Source: a virus. From it: a stretch of DNA of 64,000 nt. Positions 1,850 through 54,338 of this stretch are shown in pieces. Each line of letters starts with the position of its first letter. The first letter of the stretch is position 1. The stretch is taken from the IMG/VR virus record IMGVR_UViG_3300020020_000001, positions 1 through 64,000 of that record; one strand, 5' to 3'. The translations under genes were made by a program, and so were the position numbers. The notes under the pieces are model-generated. The model was not told where the DNA came from, made no database searches, and saw nothing but the letters and a program-made list of their open reading frames with translations.

Positions 1850-3259
1850 ATGAGTGTGGATGCGATTCGTGCGGTTTCGAAGGATAAATTCTTCGCGCAT
1901 ATAGGCTATAAACCGCACGAAAAGCAACAATTATTCCACAAGAGTGCAGCTAGATTCAAAATTCCAGTGTGTGGCCGCCGATTTGGCAAAACATACATGG
2001 GTGCCCGTGAAGCTGAGCCGCTGCTTATGGTACCAAATAAGCTGATTTGGATTGTTGGTCCTACCTATGACCTTGGAGAGAAGGAATTCCGGGTCATTTG
2101 GCAGGACATGATTGTTAAGCTTGGGTTGGGAAAAGAGAAAACTGTCAAGCGCGCGTTCAACAAACGAGCTGGCGACATGTTCATCGAATTTCCTTGGAAT
2201 ACGCGGCTTGAAGTGCGGAGCGCAGACCGACCCGAGACGTTGGTTGGTGATGCCCTTGACTACGTGATTATGGCCGAAGCGGCAAAGCATACTAAGGAAA
2301 CCTGGGACCGGTTCATTCGACCTGCATTGGCGGACCGTCGTGGGAACGCGACGTTCAGCACCACACCCGAAGGGCAGAACTGGATTCACGACCTGTGGCA
2401 AATGGGTCGGAACCCGTTGTTTGAAGATTATGAGTCATGGCGATTTCCATCGTGGGAAAATAAGGTTATTTACCCTGGTGGCCGGCAGGACCCAGAAATT
2501 GTGCTGCTCGAACGAACAATGCCATTTGAATGGTTCCTCCAAGAAATTGCTGCCGACTTCACCTCATTCATGGGCAAGATTTATTCTGAGTGGGATGAAG
2601 TTACCCATGTGCGACCAACAAAATTCAACCCAGCCTGGAAAAACTACATAGCATTTGACTGGGGTTTCGTTAACCCGATGGCCGCAGTAGAATTTCAGGT
2701 TGACCCAATGGACCGTGTCCATGTTTGGCGCATGCATTATAAGACACATACTCGGTTGGAAACTTTCCTCAATGAAATGAAGACTCGACCACAGCCGGAC
2801 GGTTACCACATTAACTTGTGCTTTGGCGATGCCGCCGACCCAGAAGCTACAGCAACAGTCTGCGAAAAATTCTTTGCCTGCCTAAGTGACCCGATGTCTA
2901 AGAACAATTGGCGAGAAGGCATAGATTTAGTAAAAGGATTTTTGCGGACCCAGACCGTAGGCGAGGCCGACGAATACGGGACGCCAGTGGACGAGCCGTG
3001 GCTGTTCGTGGACCCGTCCTGTGGGGACCTGATTCGAGAGTTCAACAACTACCGGGCGGCTGCGCCAAGCTCAGGCAAACCGAGAAACCCACGCGAAGAT
3101 GCCCAAAAGTATGATGACCACGCACTCGATGCGCTACGCTACGGTCTTATGCACATTTTCAAGCTGGGCGCAACGCAGAGTTTGAGCAGTACTGTCGACG
3201 CGAGTGACCTAACTCAAGTTCCTAGCTCTGGCTACTTTACTTCGAACATGAGCTTCTGA
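1850..3259 (+). CDS. terL: Terminase large subunit
   Basis: Walker A CGRRFGKT, Walker B-like YVIMAEAA, nuclease FDWGF and C-terminal DDHALDALRY. Confidence 0.95.
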   Translation: MSVDAIRAVSKDKFFAHIGYKPHEKQQLFHKSAARFKIPVCGRRFGKTYMGAREAEPLLMVPNKLIWIVGPTYDLGEKEFRVIWQDMIVKLGLGKEKTVKRAFNKRAGDMFIEFPWNTRLEVRSADRPETLVGDALDYVIMAEAAKHTKETWDRFIRPALADRRGNATFSTTPEGQNWIHDLWQMGRNPLFEDYESWRFPSWENKVIYPGGRQDPEIVLLERTMPFEWFLQEIAADFTSFMGKIYSEWDEVTHVRPTKFNPAWKNYIAFDWGFVNPMAAVEFQVDPMDRVHVWRMHYKTHTRLETFLNEMKTRPQPDGYHINLCFGDAADPEATATVCEKFFACLSDPMSKNNWREGIDLVKGFLRTQTVGEADEYGTPVDEPWLFVDPSCGDLIREFNNYRAAAPSSGKPRNPREDAQKYDDHALDALRYGLMHIFKLGATQSLSSTVDASDLTQVPSSGYFTSNMSF

Positions 3260-3657
3260 TGACGAATAGCAAAACTCGTGACGACCTAGTAGTCAAAGAT
3301 ACCTGTCCGCGCCGGCAAGAGAACCACCTCATAGTAGAAGAATTACTCGATGGTTGGCACTGGCGCGGCCAATTGCTCCATTGCACCTACTGTGGGTCAT
3401 TACAACCAGACATGCTGCTGAGTCTCATGGCCGCAAATACAGGGTGCGAGCTTGGACCCACAGACAAGAACTATAAGGTGTACGTGCGGCAACAAGGTGT
3501 CCATGTGGGCAAATTCTACTTCCAGCATTTTAGTGTAGCGAACTGCCAGCGGTTCATTGAACTTTACAACCAGAAACCGCGCACCTTCACTGTGGGTTAC
3601 CCACACCACTTTTATGTGCTACCGTTCTTCGTCGCATTGGAAGGGAGGGATAAATGA
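3259..3657 (+). CDS. Hypothetical protein (CxxCGS motif)
   Basis: Coupled ORF between TerL and portal; HCTYCGSL, TDKNYKVY, KFYFQH. Confidence 0.65.
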   Translation: MTNSKTRDDLVVKDTCPRRQENHLIVEELLDGWHWRGQLLHCTYCGSLQPDMLLSLMAANTGCELGPTDKNYKVYVRQQGVHVGKFYFQHFSVANCQRFIELYNQKPRTFTVGYPHHFYVLPFFVALEGRDK

Positions 3658-5227: not shown

Positions 5228-5500
5228 ATGCGAGCTGAGCCAGTTCTGTCAGTACGCCAACGCAGATTGATGCAGACAATTCCGCCAGTGGAGTCGGTGC
5301 GTCAGAAAACTGTCATTGAGATGTCTGACCGGATGGTACGTGGATTCAAAAAGAACGCTCAGAGGATTGCGAACAAGCAAGGAACAACGTACGATAAAGC
5401 CGCTGCCATCCTGGCCGCGTCTACCCGTCGCGCCTCCGCCGCAGCAAGACGTAGAAATCCCCGTCTGAACAAGGTTAATGGTAAAGGGGATAATAAATGA
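5228..5500 (+). CDS. Small basic hypothetical protein
   Basis: Arg/Lys-rich ORF with RBS between portal and protease. Confidence 0.55.
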   Translation: MRAEPVLSVRQRRLMQTIPPVESVRQKTVIEMSDRMVRGFKKNAQRIANKQGTTYDKAAAILAASTRRASAAARRRNPRLNKVNGKGDNK

Positions 5501-6609
5501 AGTCCAGCTTTGTTCTCGACGTTGAGGGTCTAACCTTCAGCGACACCAATGGTGTAGAGGGTAGCTGGGTTCATGCCCTACCAATTGGCGCTTACAAGCA
5601 TCCTGTATATGGCACAATTGAGATCACTCCTGATCGTGCCAAGAACTTCGCAGATGGTGTAAAGTCCAAGGTTCGTGGCATTGATCCTAGTATCAACTAC
5701 AACCATGACAACAAAGATGTTGCGGCCGGGTGGGTTAAAGATGCCGATGCCCGTGTTGATGGCCTTTGGCTCTTTGTTGAGTGGGTAAAGAACGCCGCAC
5801 AGAAGATCAAAGACAAAGAGTGGCGTTACTTTTCTTCGGAATTCGAAGATGAGTGGGAAGACTCAACTGGTAAGAAGCACAAGGACGTCATCCTTGGCGG
5901 TGCGCTTACAAACCGACCATTCATGAAGAACCTTGTGCCTATCAACCTATCAGAGGCAACCTACAGTCTCGCCTTCGACCTCGTTGCTGCTGCAACAGGT
6001 ACAGACCCGGATGCCCTGAAGGGGGGTAACATGCCACTAAGTGAAGACGATCTGAAGAAGATTGTCGAAGGTGTTACAACCAAGCTAGCAGAAGCCAAGG
6101 TCACTGATTCTGCACCAACGAAGTCTCTCGCGGATCTGCCGGAGCTAAAGGCGCTTGCAGAAGAGAACCCGATGGTTGCTACTCTGATTAAGTTTGTTGA
6201 GACGCAGAAGGTTGAGCTTACTTCTAACGCTCAGGCACTACGTCTAGCAGAGGTTGACCGGAAGCTGGCCGACTTCGATCGCTCGAAGATTGTGCTAACG
6301 CCAGTTGCACGTAAGCTTGCCGGTGACATCATGATGTCACTGAGTGATGACCTCCAGGAGCCATTCTGGAAGCTGCTTACGGAAATGAAGCGTGGTTCCT
6401 CGTTCCTAGTAGAGCTAGGCGAGCGGGCCGGAGCTACTGTGAACTACGGTTCACACAAGTCAGCCGTGCAGATGTTTGATGATGCCTGCAAGAAGCTTAT
6501 GTCTGAGGAAAAGCTCAGCATGTCCGACGCACTAGAGCGTGCAGCGGCGAACGACCCTAACCTATACGCTCGTTACCGCGCTGAGCTAATGGAAGGGGTG
6601 ACTAACTAA
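5497..6609 (+). CDS. Capsid maturation protease/scaffold (Mu I-like)
   Basis: YNH, AAGWV, WRYFSSEF, GGALTNRPF motifs; helical C-terminal scaffold region. Confidence 0.88.
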   Translation: MKSSFVLDVEGLTFSDTNGVEGSWVHALPIGAYKHPVYGTIEITPDRAKNFADGVKSKVRGIDPSINYNHDNKDVAAGWVKDADARVDGLWLFVEWVKNAAQKIKDKEWRYFSSEFEDEWEDSTGKKHKDVILGGALTNRPFMKNLVPINLSEATYSLAFDLVAAATGTDPDALKGGNMPLSEDDLKKIVEGVTTKLAEAKVTDSAPTKSLADLPELKALAEENPMVATLIKFVETQKVELTSNAQALRLAEVDRKLADFDRSKIVLTPVARKLAGDIMMSLSDDLQEPFWKLLTEMKRGSSFLVELGERAGATVNYGSHKSAVQMFDDACKKLMSEEKLSMSDALERAAANDPNLYARYRAELMEGVTN

Positions 6610-7043
6610 TGGCTGGTGCTGGTGCAAACTTTGTCCTAGACAAGGGCTTCCTAGCCATGCCCACATACAACAGCTCTGCGGCTGCTGGTGTGGTTGCAAA
6701 CCGATTCGTGAAGTTTGGTGCTACGGCCGGAACTGTAGACCTGAATGTTGCTTCTACTACACGCTCTATTGGTGTGGTTATGGAGAACGTTGATGCAGCC
6801 AAGGTTGTCACTGGTAAGGTAGTAGTTGACGTACGCATGATGGGTATTGCTACCGTTGTTGTTACAACTGCTACTTCTCTTGTACTTGGTAGCGTTGTAA
6901 TGTCATCCACCACTGGTGGCGTGCTGCTTGCTGCAACTGCTACCAACATTCCACTTGGCATTCTCGTTGGAATCACTGGAACTGTAGCGGCTGGTGACCT
7001 GGTTCAGGTTCTACTATGCCCTGGCCTACCTGCGATCCCATAA
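6609..7043 (+). CDS. Capsid decoration/cement protein
   Basis: Position before the MCP; small beta-rich Ala/Val/Gly protein ending AAGDLVQVLL. Confidence 0.7.
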   Translation: MAGAGANFVLDKGFLAMPTYNSSAAAGVVANRFVKFGATAGTVDLNVASTTRSIGVVMENVDAAKVVTGKVVVDVRMMGIATVVVTTATSLVLGSVVMSSTTGGVLLAATATNIPLGILVGITGTVAAGDLVQVLLCPGLPAIP

Positions 7044-42380: not shown

Positions 42381-42845
42381 CTAGCTCTTGTCGAACCAAT
42401 CATAGTACTCATAACGGTCTTCGTATCTAATAAGTGTTGGTTCGAAGCCAACCTTGATCTCTTGTCACCACATTAGCATTCGACCAGTTCGACCGTTGCC
42501 ATCAATGAATGGATGGATGTGCTCAAATCGGATGTGCTCCATCCTTGGTGTATTGGTCAGATCTGTAAGCCATTCATCCATAAGTGTTGGCACATCACGC
42601 CAGTGTGGGCAGTCACGGCCACCAACGGTGACGTTGGTTAGTCGATAGGAACCACGTCCACCAGGCTTCAATAACAAGAAGTTCATCATGATAGCGCTGT
42701 GCAATTCGAGTACCATAAACTCATTGAGTGGACCTGGATGATCCTTGATGAGATTCCAAGCTATCCAACTCTGCCCAATTTCAGCTTCGTCTGTAACACC
42801 TTCGATAAGGTTGGACTGTCGGATGTGATCTTCAGTTATATTCAT
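42381..42845 (-). CDS. Fic-domain protein with in-frame TGA at 42465-42467
   Basis: Canonical HPFIDGNGRTGR motif; frame continues after TGA as QEIKVGFEPTLIRYEDRYEYYDWF. Confidence 0.8.
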
Positions 42846-43179
42846 ACTCGTCTTCCGAATCTTCTTCCCAGTCGAGTGCTTCGGCTACTTCTCTGACTGC
42901 TACCTTGCGCATCTCATATTGAGCCTCATAAGCAAAAATATCTAGCTCATGCTTTGGCTGTGGGATGTGATTGATACCCAAAACAGAGCGCTCGTAGTTC
43001 ATCTTACTTGGCTTACGGCAACGAGAACACACCCACAGACCAGACGGTCGGTCGAGTGTGTACCCATCCTGACTTCTATGTGCACCACGCCGATGGCAGT
43101 TACACCATGGATGGATATTGAGTTCGACCATTAGTGTCCTTTTGTTGATGTCCGTTTTGTCCTTGAGATTTACGTGCAG

Positions 43180-43252
43180 TACCCACAGTAGGGATCGAAC
43201 CTACGACTTACTGCTTAGAAGGCAGTCACTCTATCCGCTGAGTTATGTGGGC
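43180..43252 (-). tRNA. tRNA-Arg(TCT)
   Basis: Cloverleaf, loop CT-TCT-AA. Confidence 0.9.
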
Positions 43253-43839
43253 TTAACGGATCGTGCATGAATTAGTACACGTACTAGTAGAACTATATCA
43301 CTTGGTATGCCACCAACTTGCGCTATGGCAATCACTATTTTATGCCAGGAATTTGGTTTTTGGTCATTGAGCCAACCAGTGAATGTAGCAGGTGTTATAC
43401 CTAAAAACCTAACTATGTCATATGAACCTAGCCAGTGTCGATTTGGCCGCCGTTGGTTGCATCTGCGAATCTCAACTACTCTTCCATAAAGAATTGAGTC
43501 CGCAAAGAATTCATAAATTTCAATCTCTACTAGTTTAGGCAATAGAAGAAGTAGTCGACGATTCTGTCGAACAGCAGCGCCATTATCCATAAACATTGTA
43601 CCCATTGGAATACTTGATCGTCTTAGCTTGTCATTGATAATCCAAACCTTGTTAGACCAATGGCAAGGTGTAAGTAAGGTGGTGGCGTACGTATCAGTAG
43701 TCCAACCACCTTCGTTTTGTACTCTTATTTCTGTAACTCGCCAACGATAATCATGCTGTAGAACCGTAATGGAAATCCCTTTTACGTTTGGTCGTTCCAA
43801 CATTACATCGGTGTGGAGTTTATATTTTGCGTTATCCAT
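43243..43839 (-). CDS. Hypothetical protein with C-terminal HTH
   Basis: SYDIVRFLGITPATFTGWLN. Confidence 0.5.
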   Translation of the reverse strand: MDNAKYKLHTDVMLERPNVKGISITVLQHDYRWRVTEIRVQNEGGWTTDTYATTLLTPCHWSNKVWIINDKLRRSSIPMGTMFMDNGAAVRQNRRLLLLLPKLVEIEIYEFFADSILYGRVVEIRRCNQRRPNRHWLGSYDIVRFLGITPATFTGWLNDQKPNSWHKIVIAIAQVGGIPSDIVLLVRVLIHARSVKPT

Positions 43840-43874
43840 TGTATGCTCATCACTATTAGTTATGTGGTATCACG

Positions 43875-44340
43875 TACGCATGGTAGGATTCGAACCTACA
43901 ATCACTAGGACTTTCTTCCTGCTTTGCCGGCACATCTTTTAGAACAGAATGGGCCGCGACCTTTATATAAAAGTTGGTTAGTTTTATATCTTTTGTATTC
44001 ACGATAGAAATTCGAACCACAAATTGGGCATATGAAGTTCTTCCATGAAGTAGGACGCTTTGATTTACTAAGATTTTCGTCTTGAGTTAAAATTTGTAAG
44101 TTATCAATTCTGTTGTCACGGAAATCTTCATTTCTATGGTCAACATGTTCCCAAGACTCAAGCTTGCGACCCAAATGTTGTTCCATAAGATAACGTGGAT
44201 ACGATTGTGTACGACCGACCCCATTCTCGTAATGAATTACGAAAAATCTTCCAGGCTTGGAACCCGATTCATAAGGTCCATATACAGCAATCATATTTAT
44301 ATCCTAGATCCTAGCGGCTTTGCCATTAGCCCACATGCGC
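43875..44340 (-). tRNA. Split tRNA (Leu-like; anticodon reads CTA or TAG) interrupted in the anticodon loop by an HNH gene
   Basis: 5' half 44340-44303 (GCGCATG, D-arm GGCT/AGCC, CTAGG) and 3' half 43910-43875 (CCTAG, GTAGGTTCGAATCCTAC, CATGCGT-A) pair with each other. Confidence 0.8.
43905..44294 (-). CDS. HNH endonuclease with C-terminal Zn finger
   Basis: RYLME..LGR.L, HVDHRNED..DNRIDNLQIL, CPICG...FCSKRC. Confidence 0.88.
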   Translation of the reverse strand: MIAVYGPYESGSKPGRFFVIHYENGVGRTQSYPRYLMEQHLGRKLESWEHVDHRNEDFRDNRIDNLQILTQDENLSKSKRPTSWKNFICPICGSNFYREYKRYKTNQLLYKGRGPFCSKRCAGKAGRKS

Positions 44341-44605
44341 ATATTCAGTTGTTGAGATTTGGACTTTGGAATGTATAGTTGTACCTGTGGGCTAGAATAA
44401 GCAAGCCCACACCATTACTAGCCAACACGGTAGCTATGTAAATATATGTTAATGTAAACAACATTACTTGTTCCTTATTGCAGAAACAAATTCGTAGCCA
44501 ATCCAGATCGGAATGGCAAACCCACAGGACAAGATTGATGCAAGTAAGAAGCCTGCCCTGATCTGTGACTTCGTGTTGTACTTAATCTGTACTATGTTGT
44601 TCATG

Positions 44606-44677
44606 AGCCCCGTGTAAGAATCGAACTCACAATTCCTTATTACAAGTAAGGTGTTATGACCATTTAACTAACAGGGC
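44606..44677 (-). tRNA. tRNA-Thr(TGT)
   Basis: Cloverleaf. Confidence 0.85.
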
Positions 44678-45359
44678 ATATTTAGTTATGTTAGGTTGCC
44701 ATCCTCACGCAACTTACTTACTCGCTCGAAGATGTCTTCCAGTAATGCAGTTGGATCAACACCTGTAGCTCTACCAAGCAAAGCCATTAGCTCTGTGATA
44801 ATAGCAGCGGCACCATCAGTACCAAACAAGAACATTACCTCTGCGTGATCTTGTGTTCTATTGATTCTACCACTCAATGCCATAGCAATTACTGAGCTGT
44901 CGCTTCCTTCAAAATCTAAAGTAGATACAACACACTCTTTTAGCAAGATCGCATTTCTAGTATCTAGGACTACACCAGCTTGGTCATGTGGTCCACCTGG
45001 ACCTATGATTTTGCCGCCTAAATTACGAGGATCAGCCGTCCTCTTAATTTTACGTCGATTACTCATCATCCTGTCCAACTCTTAGTTCATCCTCAGGATC
45101 TTCACCTATTGCCTCGCAGATCTTAGTCCAGATAGGCTCAAGACACAAACGACATAAATCCTTACGAACTCTAGAGTTGACACATAAGTCGACATTCAAT
45201 AGAATGATTAGTTCTTGCGCATATAGATCTTCATTGCCGTCTGGTGGTTCATCAGGATCAACAATCTTACCACAGACATCACATTTTATCGTAGTCGTGT
45301 ATGTTGTGATGATGGTTGCAGGTGCAACCTCGTTGACTACTACGGTTTCTCTTGACATG

Positions 45360-47319: not shown

Positions 47320-47820
47320 TCATTCCGAAGCTGTTCCATTTGCCATACAAGTTGGTTGTATTGGTTTATGATATCTTCGTTGGCCATTGACGCTCCTAGT
47401 AGTGATATTACATCTAAAGCAGGATACAACTAGATTGCTTATATCATTATTTAACTTATCAAAGTTAAGATGATCTGATAATATACCATGTATGCCACCC
47501 CATGTAAGAGTTACACCACACCAATTGCATTCATGTTCACAATCAATGGATTCACAACCAAGTGAATTCCATAAAACCAATCTATGTTCTCTAACAACTC
47601 CATTTTGTGGACTAGCTAATGGATGATTCCACATACCACTAAGTGATACATAACCATCTGCTATGTATCTTCTTATCGGTTCTTGTGTTGGTTCTGGAAC
47701 CTTTCTTCCTCTACGTTTAAGAGATTTATCACTAGTCCAGTAATCTTTACTTTGAACATACTTGCGAGCAATGCCTTCTAAATCCACGTTTAATGTCGCA
47801 CGGATATACGAAATATTCAT
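47320..47820 (-). CDS. HNH endonuclease
   Basis: EHRLV, CNWCG, DHLNFDKLNNDISNLVVSCFRCN; AT-rich. Confidence 0.8.
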   Translation of the reverse strand: MNISYIRATLNVDLEGIARKYVQSKDYWTSDKSLKRRGRKVPEPTQEPIRRYIADGYVSLSGMWNHPLASPQNGVVREHRLVLWNSLGCESIDCEHECNWCGVTLTWGGIHGILSDHLNFDKLNNDISNLVVSCFRCNITTRSVNGQRRYHKPIQPTCMANGTASE

Positions 47821-47879
47821 TATTGCACTGCTCACGAGCACATAATACAATAGGCATGGTGTTCCTTTGTTGTACTGAG

Positions 47880-50960: not shown

Positions 50961-51167
50961 GTATTTGTCCTTATTTGAGAACTAGCCTGATTTCCAATTT
51001 CGGAAAGAATTCTTTCTAATTCGTTTGATTCTTCTTTTAGTTTCAGTTTTAGTTCAGCGTCTGATTCTTCGACAGACATAAGTTCGGTTTCGTTTATCGC
51101 TAGACACAAACCATCGACTAGCTTATTATAGTCTTCTTCCAGAAGCTGTATGAATACAGTTAACATG

Positions 51168-51240
51168 TGCTCCTAGAGAGATTCGAACTCTCACTAATCG
51201 GGACTTAAATCCGATGCCTCTGCCATTGGGCTACAGGAGC
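51168..51240 (-). tRNA. tRNA-Leu(TAA), short variable arm
   Basis: TT-TAA-GT loop, Leu-type D-loop, A73. Confidence 0.8.
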
Positions 51241-53089: not shown

Positions 53090-53355
53090 TTCGACCCCTT
53101 TCAAAGGGATATGTTACTGTCAGTTTGATGAGATTTTTGATTGATTTCCATAGTTCTTGGCATCTTATGGTAAGTACAGATGCTATGATCATCCAACGTG
53201 GGCAGCTAACGATGAATTGTAACATCTCACCTTGTAAGTGCATACATCTGGTACACCAATCGCCATCAATATCTTCGTCGCAAGGCTGTCCATCGTGGGA
53301 TAAGTCAATTGCTTTCATGAGTTGTTGTGCTTCATAGTGGAAATTTCTCGTCACG

Positions 53356-53440
53356 CAGAGGGTGTAGGATTTGAACCCACGGTGGTGTTACCCACTTCTG
53401 TTTTCAAGACAGATGCCTTAAGCCTCTCGGCCAACCCTCC
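53356..53440 (-). tRNA. tRNA-Ser(TGA)
   Basis: Cloverleaf with long variable arm. Confidence 0.9.
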
Positions 53441-53733
53441 TAAATAGCTAATCTGTAACTTTTCTTATGTCACCCTTATGCTGGATCATTTGTATTGGAT
53501 GTATAATCCACATTGAGACTCGAACCATAAAGAGAATATAGTTTGGTGTCTCATTGTATACTTCTTCGAACTTTTCTTCTAGATTTTTACAGCGCACGCA
53601 ATCTTTTGAGTTATCACAATCTTCAGCATGTCTATTCAATGCTTCGTTTACATGTTCTATTTTTCTTAATAAGAAAACAAGATCCATTTTAACTCTCCAA
53701 AGGTTGTCGGATATGGTTATGTCATCGTGTCGA

Positions 53734-53803
53734 TTCGCAGGGAAGGACTCCAACCCTCATAACTGTCACGCAGACATTGCACTAGCCGTTGTGCTACCTG
53801 GGA
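53734..53803 (-). tRNA. Atypical/degenerate tRNA-like element (possible GCG anticodon)
   Basis: Acceptor TCCCAGG/CCTGCGA, D-arm GCAC/GTGC, T-loop TTGGAGT; short anticodon arm. Confidence 0.45.
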
Positions 53804-54338
53804 TAAACGATGTACTTCGACCCGACTACTCTTGTAAGTTTTTGTAACTATGGAGTTACTGGAGGAACTGTTGGCTCTGGCGATTCGGCTTCTACATCTG
53901 CGTCTAGTGCTTCGATGTTTGCATTTGCTGTTGCTAGGTTGTCTGCTACACCCTGAAGTGCCTCTTCAGCAGCCGCAGTGTCACCCTGAGCTAGTAGACG
54001 CTGAACGTCCTTTACTAGTTCAGCAGTGTTGGTGAGGAGAGTACCCACACCAGTCACAACCGCGCTTACCTTATCGTCGAGAGCCGACACTTTTGCCTCC
54101 ATCGCAGTAATGGCCGAAGCCAATTCCTGTGCATACTCAAGATGAACATGCACTTCCGTTACTGTGGGTGGAAGTCCTGACAAGTTTAGGTTCAAACTAA
54201 TGTCAGCCATCCATTTTCCCTTCTATCAAAGGGTTGGTTGGATATATTTAAGGTAGTCAGAAGTGGTTCTAATTCACTAGCCTTGCGGCTTTTGCAGTGT
54301 ATAGATAACTGACTACTTTCGACCCAACCAAAAACTAT

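Follow-up and report, generated by a model that had tools for sequence, protein, structure and literature searches.

A bare HNH endonuclease gene in the anticodon loop of a phage tRNA gene, and its tRNA-Leu-associated lineage

In the genome of a tailed phage, a gene for an HNH homing endonuclease occupies the anticodon loop of a tRNA gene whose two halves, although 393 nt apart on the minus strand (43875-44340), still pair in all four stems. The insert is almost entirely the endonuclease ORF, it contains no recognisable ribozyme, the phage encodes no RtcB, Rnl-type ligase or tRNA-splicing endonuclease, and homologues of the endonuclease recur at tRNA-Leu genes of unrelated phages. We consider it likely, with a probability of roughly 0.7, that a recent homing insertion, not accompanied by an intron, inactivated a redundant tRNA-Leu gene.

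The phage and its split tRNA gene

The window analysed here, 64,000 nucleotides long, is the first 64 kb of a complete phage genome of 80,170 bp with 127-bp direct terminal repeats, and the public runs that contain it are soil and sediment metagenomes, none of them recorded as RNA. Judging from its genes for a T4-type terminase, a Mu-type portal, a tape-measure protein, a UDG-PolA fusion, a primase-helicase, an SNF2 helicase and an NlpC/P60-LysM lysin, this is a tailed phage of bacteria; the lysin, the portal type and PolA likewise make the host appear bacterial. A Ro60/TROVE protein is also encoded. With default settings ARAGORN finds 23 ordinary tRNA genes, which span 42.2 to 59.9 kb and are all encoded by the minus strand. 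The phage has intact genes for tRNA-Leu(UAA) and tRNA-Leu(UAG), and no Leu(CAA) other than the possible one described below. TAG terminates 46 of 160 crudely called ORFs (~29%), that of the portal gene among them, and is thus a common stop codon in a phage that is not amber-recoded. No long TAG-interrupted frames stand out among these ORFs, where adjacent genes abutting a TAG are trivially in frame.

Two low-GC ORFs in or near the tRNA array, both on the minus strand, resemble endonucleases at scores below threshold: one at 47320-47850 (HNH_3, 16 bits) and one at 63068-63580 (HNH_3, 23.2 bits, and AP2, 24 bits, both just under the Pfam cut-offs). Endonuclease genes seem to be concentrated in this array. 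A 126-aa ORF adjoining tRNA-Lys(ctt) (42465-42845, minus strand) has the C-terminal end HPFIDGNGRTGR, a Fic motif, and no relatives were found for a 198-aa ORF downstream of the split tRNA.

In its intron mode, ARAGORN calls the split gene at c[43874,44340] with anticodon CTA and a 393-nt insert after position 37, in agreement with an earlier note on this DNA that had placed the halves about 390 nt apart with all four stems paired. The 5' half (44340-44304) reads GCGCATG-TG-GGCT-AATGGCAA-AGCC-G-CTAGG-AUCUAG and the 3' half (43910-43875) U-CCTAG-TGATT-GTAGG-TTCGAAT-CCTAC-CATGCGT-A. The acceptor stem is complete (7/7, with a G1-U72 wobble), as are the D (4/4), anticodon (5/5, extendable to 6-8 bp) and T (5/5) stems, so that 21 of 21 cloverleaf base pairs are intact; the T loop has the consensus sequence. 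The gene goes undetected by default ARAGORN and by Rfam's tRNA model, and 100 shuffles of the surrounding 4 kb yielded 0 intron-mode calls. Another intron-mode call, a 'tRNA-Ser(gct)' with a 918-nt intron (G000, 53280-54287, plus strand), overlaps real minus-strand tRNAs and is almost certainly false; output of this mode needs checking. Both junctions of the split gene are bridged, with zero differences, by contigs of a second, independent soil sample, and the gene is therefore not an assembly chimera.

The 10-nt leader directly upstream recurs unchanged before one intact tRNA gene (Table 1), and its one-base variants, AACTAAATAT/C, precede tRNA-Thr (44677) and tRNA-Lys(ttt) (45999). The earlier statement that the split gene keeps the leader of intact tRNAs thus holds exactly for tRNA-Tyr and to within one base for the other two. 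At the 5' junction lies a tandem duplication, of which copy 1 forms the anticodon-stem 5' strand together with A32 and U33, and copy 2 carries the ribosome-binding site of the HNH gene, AGGA (44305-44302). The 3' strand of the anticodon stem, UCCUAG, is able to pair with either CTAGGA copy.

The ORF matches the Pfam family HNH_3 (PF13392) at 35.9 bits (cut-off 24.8, E=5.6e-9) and PHROG 14913, 'HNH endonuclease', at E=2e-19. Its C-terminus is a C4 zinc ribbon, and it retains all invariant columns of 47 homologues (E38, R43, L45, E49, H53, N65, C89, C92, C117 and C121). It covers 384 of the 393 insert bases, with only 9 nt (GATATAAAT) outside it. The AGGA stands 7 nt ahead of the ATG, and the last codons, AAG TCC TAG, are tRNA positions 35-43, which places the stop TAG (43907-43905) on positions 41-43, with an in-frame TGA next. 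Much of this had been read correctly from the letters alone, namely that the insert is nearly all a 129-aa HNH ORF, that AGGA lies at the anticodon loop and TAG in the 3' anticodon stem, and that there is no room for an intron core.

Table 1 Features of the split tRNA gene and short-variable-loop tRNAs with Leu anticodons
Feature	Position	Strand	Remarks
5' leader AACTGAATAT	44341..44350	-	Directly upstream of the tRNA 5' end; identical 10-mer before tRNA-Tyr (49252)
tRNA 5' half, positions 1-34	44307..44340	-	Acceptor 5' strand, D arm, anticodon-stem 5' strand, A32 U33 C34; 5' exon ends at 44304 (position 37) in the ARAGORN register
Tandem duplication CTAGGAT-CTAGGAT	44301..44314	-	Read directly from the sequence
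Intervening sequence, 393 nt	43911..44303	-	ARAGORN 37/38 register; 43914-44306 in the 34/35 register
HNH_3 homing endonuclease ORF, 129 aa	43905..44294	-	Pfam PF13392, PHROG 14913
tRNA 3' half, positions 38-73	43875..43910	-	U38, anticodon-stem 3' strand, variable loop TGATT, T arm, acceptor 3' strand, A73; begins at 43913 in the 34/35 register
Short-variable-loop tRNA, Leu anticodon (window)	51167-51240	-	
Short-variable-loop tRNA, Leu anticodon (L032)	1921-1994		
Short-variable-loop tRNA, Leu anticodon (L004)	3404-3480		
Short-variable-loop tRNA, Leu anticodon (L014)	5415-5488		
Short-variable-loop tRNA, Leu anticodon (L054)	6565-6639		

An exact 7-nt anticodon loop is restorable in two registers. 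Removal of the insert after position 37 (or 35 or 36) gives the loop AU-CUA-GU, and removal between positions 34 and 35 gives the canonical loop AU-CAA-GU, in which ARAGORN then calls tRNA-Leu(CAA). The earlier note had proposed either CUA or UAG (Leu) as the anticodon: the former is the ARAGORN register, but the register that yields UAG is non-canonical, and the Leu(CAA) register at 34/35 had been missed. Among ~300 tRNAs of the loci fetched for this study (see below), the closest to the split gene is a tRNA-Leu(caa) of L009 that is 75 nt long and has a short variable arm. From the D arm of the split gene, a 19-nt word is found in one other viral contig only (L054), within an intact short-arm tRNA-Leu(cag) whose D arm, TGGGCTAATGGCAAAGCCG, is identical to that of the split tRNA and which also has G1-U72 and A73 in common with it. 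In the closest relative phage (L014, an 81-kb contig with 82% SNF2 identity), the interval between Thr(tgt) and Arg(tct) holds Gln(ctg) and a short-arm Leu(caa); the split gene occupies the same interval here, and the HNH gene, patchy in its occurrence, is missing from that syntenic interval of the relative. On these grounds, and since the phage has no other Leu(CAA), we take the interrupted gene to be a short-variable-arm ('class-I-like') phage tRNA-Leu, most probably tRNA-Leu(CAA). An amber suppressor is doubtful, being dependent on the register, having A36 next to an unusual G37 and belonging to a phage in which TAG ends ~29% of ORFs.

As a separate observation, some phage tRNAs with the Leu anticodons UAA, CAA and CAG have a short 5-nt variable loop and lack the long Leu arm (Table 1). 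Positions 31 and 39 are mismatched in several of them (A31-C39 or C31-C39), and G1-U72 occurs together with A73 in some.

Neither exact-word searches nor the soil contigs produced an uninterrupted allele of the split gene. The exact 31-mer of its 5' half is in no other viral contig, and megablast and blastn searches with 43200-45100 against cultured phages returned only tRNA-Arg fragments. Contigs from four DNA runs contain no joint that skips the insert, a comparison in which rare empty alleles would be dropped by the assembly into contigs. Those from the two sediment runs are confined to the interior of the ORF (98-99% identity). A diverged copy of this insertion was not found either.

A lineage of endonuclease genes at tRNA-Leu

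The HNH protein has 135 homologues at 35-60% identity. An identical protein is encoded on three contigs, and the homologues P0002-P0005 are 59% identical to it. We fetched homologue loci from viral, metagenome, genome and cultured-phage collections, of which 32 were informative, a tally that leaves out the three contigs with the identical protein and P0002-P0005. At ~28 of these 32 loci, counted by us and belonging to unrelated phages, a tRNA-Leu(UAA) gene lies within 100 nt of the HNH gene or is its host. The collection of bacterial and archaeal genomes contributed one homologue only, on a small phage-like MAG contig.

Four layouts can be told apart at these loci. In the first (L024/L052 and L051), the HNH gene interrupts tRNA-Leu(UAA) precisely at the U34/A35 boundary. 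Downstream of the HNH gene, L024 has a group I match of 40 bits (E=2.8e-7), which is under Rfam's 50-bit gathering score, and the corresponding sequence of L051 is near-identical to it; from this match, both inserts are probable group I introns. The second layout accounts for most loci: a free-standing HNH gene has an intact tRNA-Leu(UAA) before or after it at a distance of 0-25 nt, and its ORF often reads into the adjoining tRNA. Among cultured phages, Salmonella phage PVP-SE1, with an unannotated HNH gene, and Klebsiella phage KP13-16 have this free-standing form. In the third layout (L006, L025, L030, L033 and L039), the HNH gene and an intact tRNA-Leu(UAA) together split a Leu-like tRNA in its anticodon loop. 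In the fourth, only the 5' half of such an outer tRNA is retained (L004, L027, L028, L031 and PVP-SE1). Where both outer halves exist, their condition differs, being perfect in L025, L030 and L033 and mismatched in L006 (anticodon and D stems) and L039 (D and T stems). Such graded states of the flanking halves are what decaying scars would be expected to show.

In a maximum-likelihood tree of 26 HNH proteins, the intron-borne forms make up a separate, long-branched clade, and the nested, half-only and free-standing forms are interleaved. The protein from the window is sister to that of the nested locus L025, with support of 86/89.

Several further observations were made at these loci. In PVP-SE1 (L055, NC_016071.1), the unannotated HNH homologue (66019-66384, 42% identity) lies directly upstream of an annotated tRNA-Leu. 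In the roughly 70 nt before it is an apparent short-arm tRNA 5' half (GCGTCCT TG GTCCAATCTGGTAGAGGC...), and the HNH start codon falls in the former anticodon stem. The cassettes of L030 and L033 end in inverted repeats (L030, 1840-1859 with 2343-2362, 20 nt, 95%; L033, 892-909 with 1400-1417, 18 nt, 94%). The two pairs are unrelated in sequence, yet each lengthens the outer anticodon stem and stops precisely where the inner tRNA has its 3' end. This looks like covariation that serves a helix in the RNA, for which an RNase III site is one possibility. Near other HNH homologues, the intron mode of ARAGORN reports tRNA-like genes with 33-48-nt inserts (L058, 1834-2186 and 2692-2810; L026, 2605-2725). 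A 121-nt stretch among them matches the Rfam tRNA model end to end; the inserts may be small tRNA introns or false calls.

A probable homing insertion and the alternatives

Taken together, the lineage's sites suggest that its target is the anticodon-loop DNA of phage tRNA-Leu genes, where cleavage is predicted. During co-infection, the enzyme would cut a tRNA-Leu allele that lacks the insertion, within the anticodon loop or close to it, and repair would copy the HNH gene into the cut allele, whereby the insertion would destroy the enzyme's own target site. The cassette is minimal here, consisting of a ribosome-binding site and an ORF that borrows its last codons and its stop from the tRNA 3' half, and the interrupted tRNA would most likely be non-functional. 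Under the wobble rules, a modified U34 lets tRNA-Leu(UAA) read UUG as well as UUA. The intact tRNA-Leu(UAA) of the phage should therefore serve UUG codons too, so that loss of Leu(CAA) would be tolerated. The four stems would be intact because the insertion is recent and has had no time to decay, and not because the RNA is spliced; with no uninterrupted allele found, this recency is something that we infer. Of the explanations that the earlier note had put forward, a homing insertion that killed a redundant tRNA fares best, given a lineage that keeps to tRNA-Leu, relatives whose flanking halves range from intact to lost, and the retention of an intact Leu(UAA).

Some observations sit less comfortably with a homing insertion. 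The 21 intact pairs and the restorable loop would be expected equally of a gene that is maintained and spliced. The tandem CTAGGAT and the alternative pairing of the 3' strand do not follow from a simple homing model, and the inverted repeats of L030 and L033 hint at an RNA-level role for at least some of the shells.

An alternative is that the tRNA-like shell has been kept for a job other than decoding. RNase P and 3' trimming would define an RNA of ~467 nt, whose ends would stabilise or throttle the HNH mRNA. Consistent with such a role, the predicted minimum-free-energy fold of the 467-nt precursor retains the acceptor, D, anticodon and T helices, with a z-score of -3.7 that includes the tRNA part. 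The 3' strand is also able to pair with either of the two CTAGGA copies, the second of which holds the ribosome-binding site. The homologues' close packing against tRNA-Leu genes and their ORFs reading into the tRNA suggest that their mRNAs are probably cut out of tRNA transcripts, and the insert is closed by covarying inverted repeats in L030 and L033. Against it, one or both outer halves are gone in many relatives, and the shell is thus dispensable for the endonuclease. Nor does an outer tRNA surround the element: none appeared when 43874-44340 was deleted or masked at 144 offset combinations. Overall, we regard a retained shell as rather unlikely.

As to the tmRNA-like scaffold among the earlier note's options, ARAGORN makes no tmRNA call, and pair 3-70 is G-C and not the G3-U70 by which tmRNA is charged with Ala. 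The ORF codes for a folded enzyme and, unlike a tmRNA tag frame, which is entered with no start codon, begins at an ATG of its own behind its own AGGA. A Y RNA, considered since the phage has a Ro60 protein, was rejected: 43000-45200 contains no YrlA-type match, and the topology is reversed relative to that of a Y RNA.

More broadly, the gene might still be alive. Either a ribozyme-free excision, carried out by a cellular endonuclease and an RtcB-type ligase, would yield Leu(CAA), or the shell and the HNH gene would form a mobile RNA module processed at its tRNA-like ends. We deem this unlikely.

A true intron removed without a ribozyme, by a host endonuclease or an unrecognised phage one and then a host ligase (RtcB), would give tRNA-Leu(CAA) or a CUA amber suppressor. 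The perfect stems and the exactly restorable 7-nt loop speak in its favour, as does the fact that this is the only possible Leu(CAA) of the phage; the ARAGORN register, moreover, falls at 37/38, the canonical site of protein-spliced introns. However, the hallmarks of such introns are missing. A bulge-helix-bulge, with its 4-bp helix between two 3-nt bulges, was sought by hand between positions 32-35 and the four bases before the 3' junction and amounts to 3/4 central pairs with no outer helix, and the predicted fold has a continuous, bulge-free, 8-bp extended anticodon stem in its place. Searches with PF01974, PF01139 and PF09414 found no RtcB, tRNA-intron endonuclease (EndA) or Rnl-type ligase in the complete 80-kb phage genome. 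The host appears bacterial and may itself supply an RtcB, but we know of no tRNA-splicing endonuclease in bacteria. Moreover, a CUA anticodon with G37 is atypical, TAG is a common stop in this phage, and the halves decay in relatives. We therefore find no positive support for the protein-spliced intron that the earlier note had listed among its options, and hold it to be very unlikely.

A self-splicing intron fares worst. Searching 43000-45200 against every Rfam family, up to E=10, returned only the two neighbouring tRNAs; the Infernal comparison with intron models that had been suggested as a check thus finds no group I, group II or small ribozyme in this region. The group I model RF00028 has no match in the whole genome, whereas the same Rfam library, as a positive control, finds the group I core in the relative L024. 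The junctions give a mixed picture: in the 37/38-type registers the insert ends in G but follows A or G instead of U, in the 34/35 register a C precedes it and its last base is A, and no register fits both group I rules. A degenerate group I intron or other ribozyme hidden within the coding sequence, conceivable in that a probable group I intron, placed identically in its tRNA, houses distant HNH homologues (35% identity), is extremely improbable, the more so as the ORF is under protein constraint along its full length.

Relation to known systems

Protein-spliced tRNA introns of archaea and eukaryotes are found at 37/38, form a bulge-helix-bulge and are processed by EndA and RtcB. The split gene resembles them in that one of its registers is at 37/38 and that no ribozyme is involved, but it has no bulge-helix-bulge and belongs to a phage of bacteria that encodes neither EndA nor RtcB. 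Among self-splicing introns, the group I intron of tRNA-Leu(UAA) in cyanobacteria and plastids is inserted at U34/A35, and that of tRNA-fMet carries the endonuclease I-Ssp6803I. Like the tRNA-Leu(UAA) intron, the present insert is in a Leu anticodon loop, at 34/35 in one register, and its distant homologues in L024 and L051 are in a probable intron of that kind; unlike it, the insert has no ribozyme core and could not accommodate one, and in that register it lacks the terminal G and is not preceded by U at the 5' junction. To our knowledge, homing endonuclease genes are thought to persist in essential genes only within an intron or intein, and otherwise between genes. Our literature search retrieved no description of a bare endonuclease gene that splits a bacterial or phage tRNA.

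A functional parallel is SegB of phage T4, a GIY-YIG enzyme that recognises a motif of tRNA genes, cuts inside the tRNA genes of a rival phage and drives the co-inheritance of itself and the neighbouring tRNA genes; processing of the tRNA transcript is believed to keep its expression low (PMC2330249). [quoted passage not shown] Both SegB and the HNH gene of the split tRNA are nuclease genes embedded in a phage tRNA array. SegB, however, sits between intact tRNA genes and targets a T-arm motif, whereas the HNH_3 gene splits a tRNA at the anticodon loop, and its cleavage is predicted only.

The nearest published parallel is provided by the tRNAs of Lak megaphages, which have 'enigmatic' introns, one of them possibly encoding a tRNA (Devoto et al. 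2019, PMC6784885). In both cases, inserts that Rfam does not classify lie within phage tRNAs, and a tRNA-in-tRNA layout is also seen at L006, L025, L030, L033 and L039. In contrast, the passages on the Lak inserts do not mention endonuclease genes, and the split tRNA described here contains a bare HNH ORF with no inner tRNA.

If the split tRNA were spliced after all, it would be the first case of a tRNA intron removed by proteins in a bacterial system. Because the lineage has cultured members, PVP-SE1 and KP13-16, cleavage and homing can be tested at the bench. The lineage combines four solutions at the tRNA-Leu anticodon loop, namely within a probable group I intron, free-standing, accompanied by a spare tRNA, and bare in a redundant isoacceptor. 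It thereby offers a compact natural series for the intron-borne versus the free-standing life of endonucleases and for the reshuffling of phage tRNA arrays. The main value of the finding is this picture of a family, not a new splicing mechanism; what is new is an endonuclease gene inserted bare into the tRNA itself.
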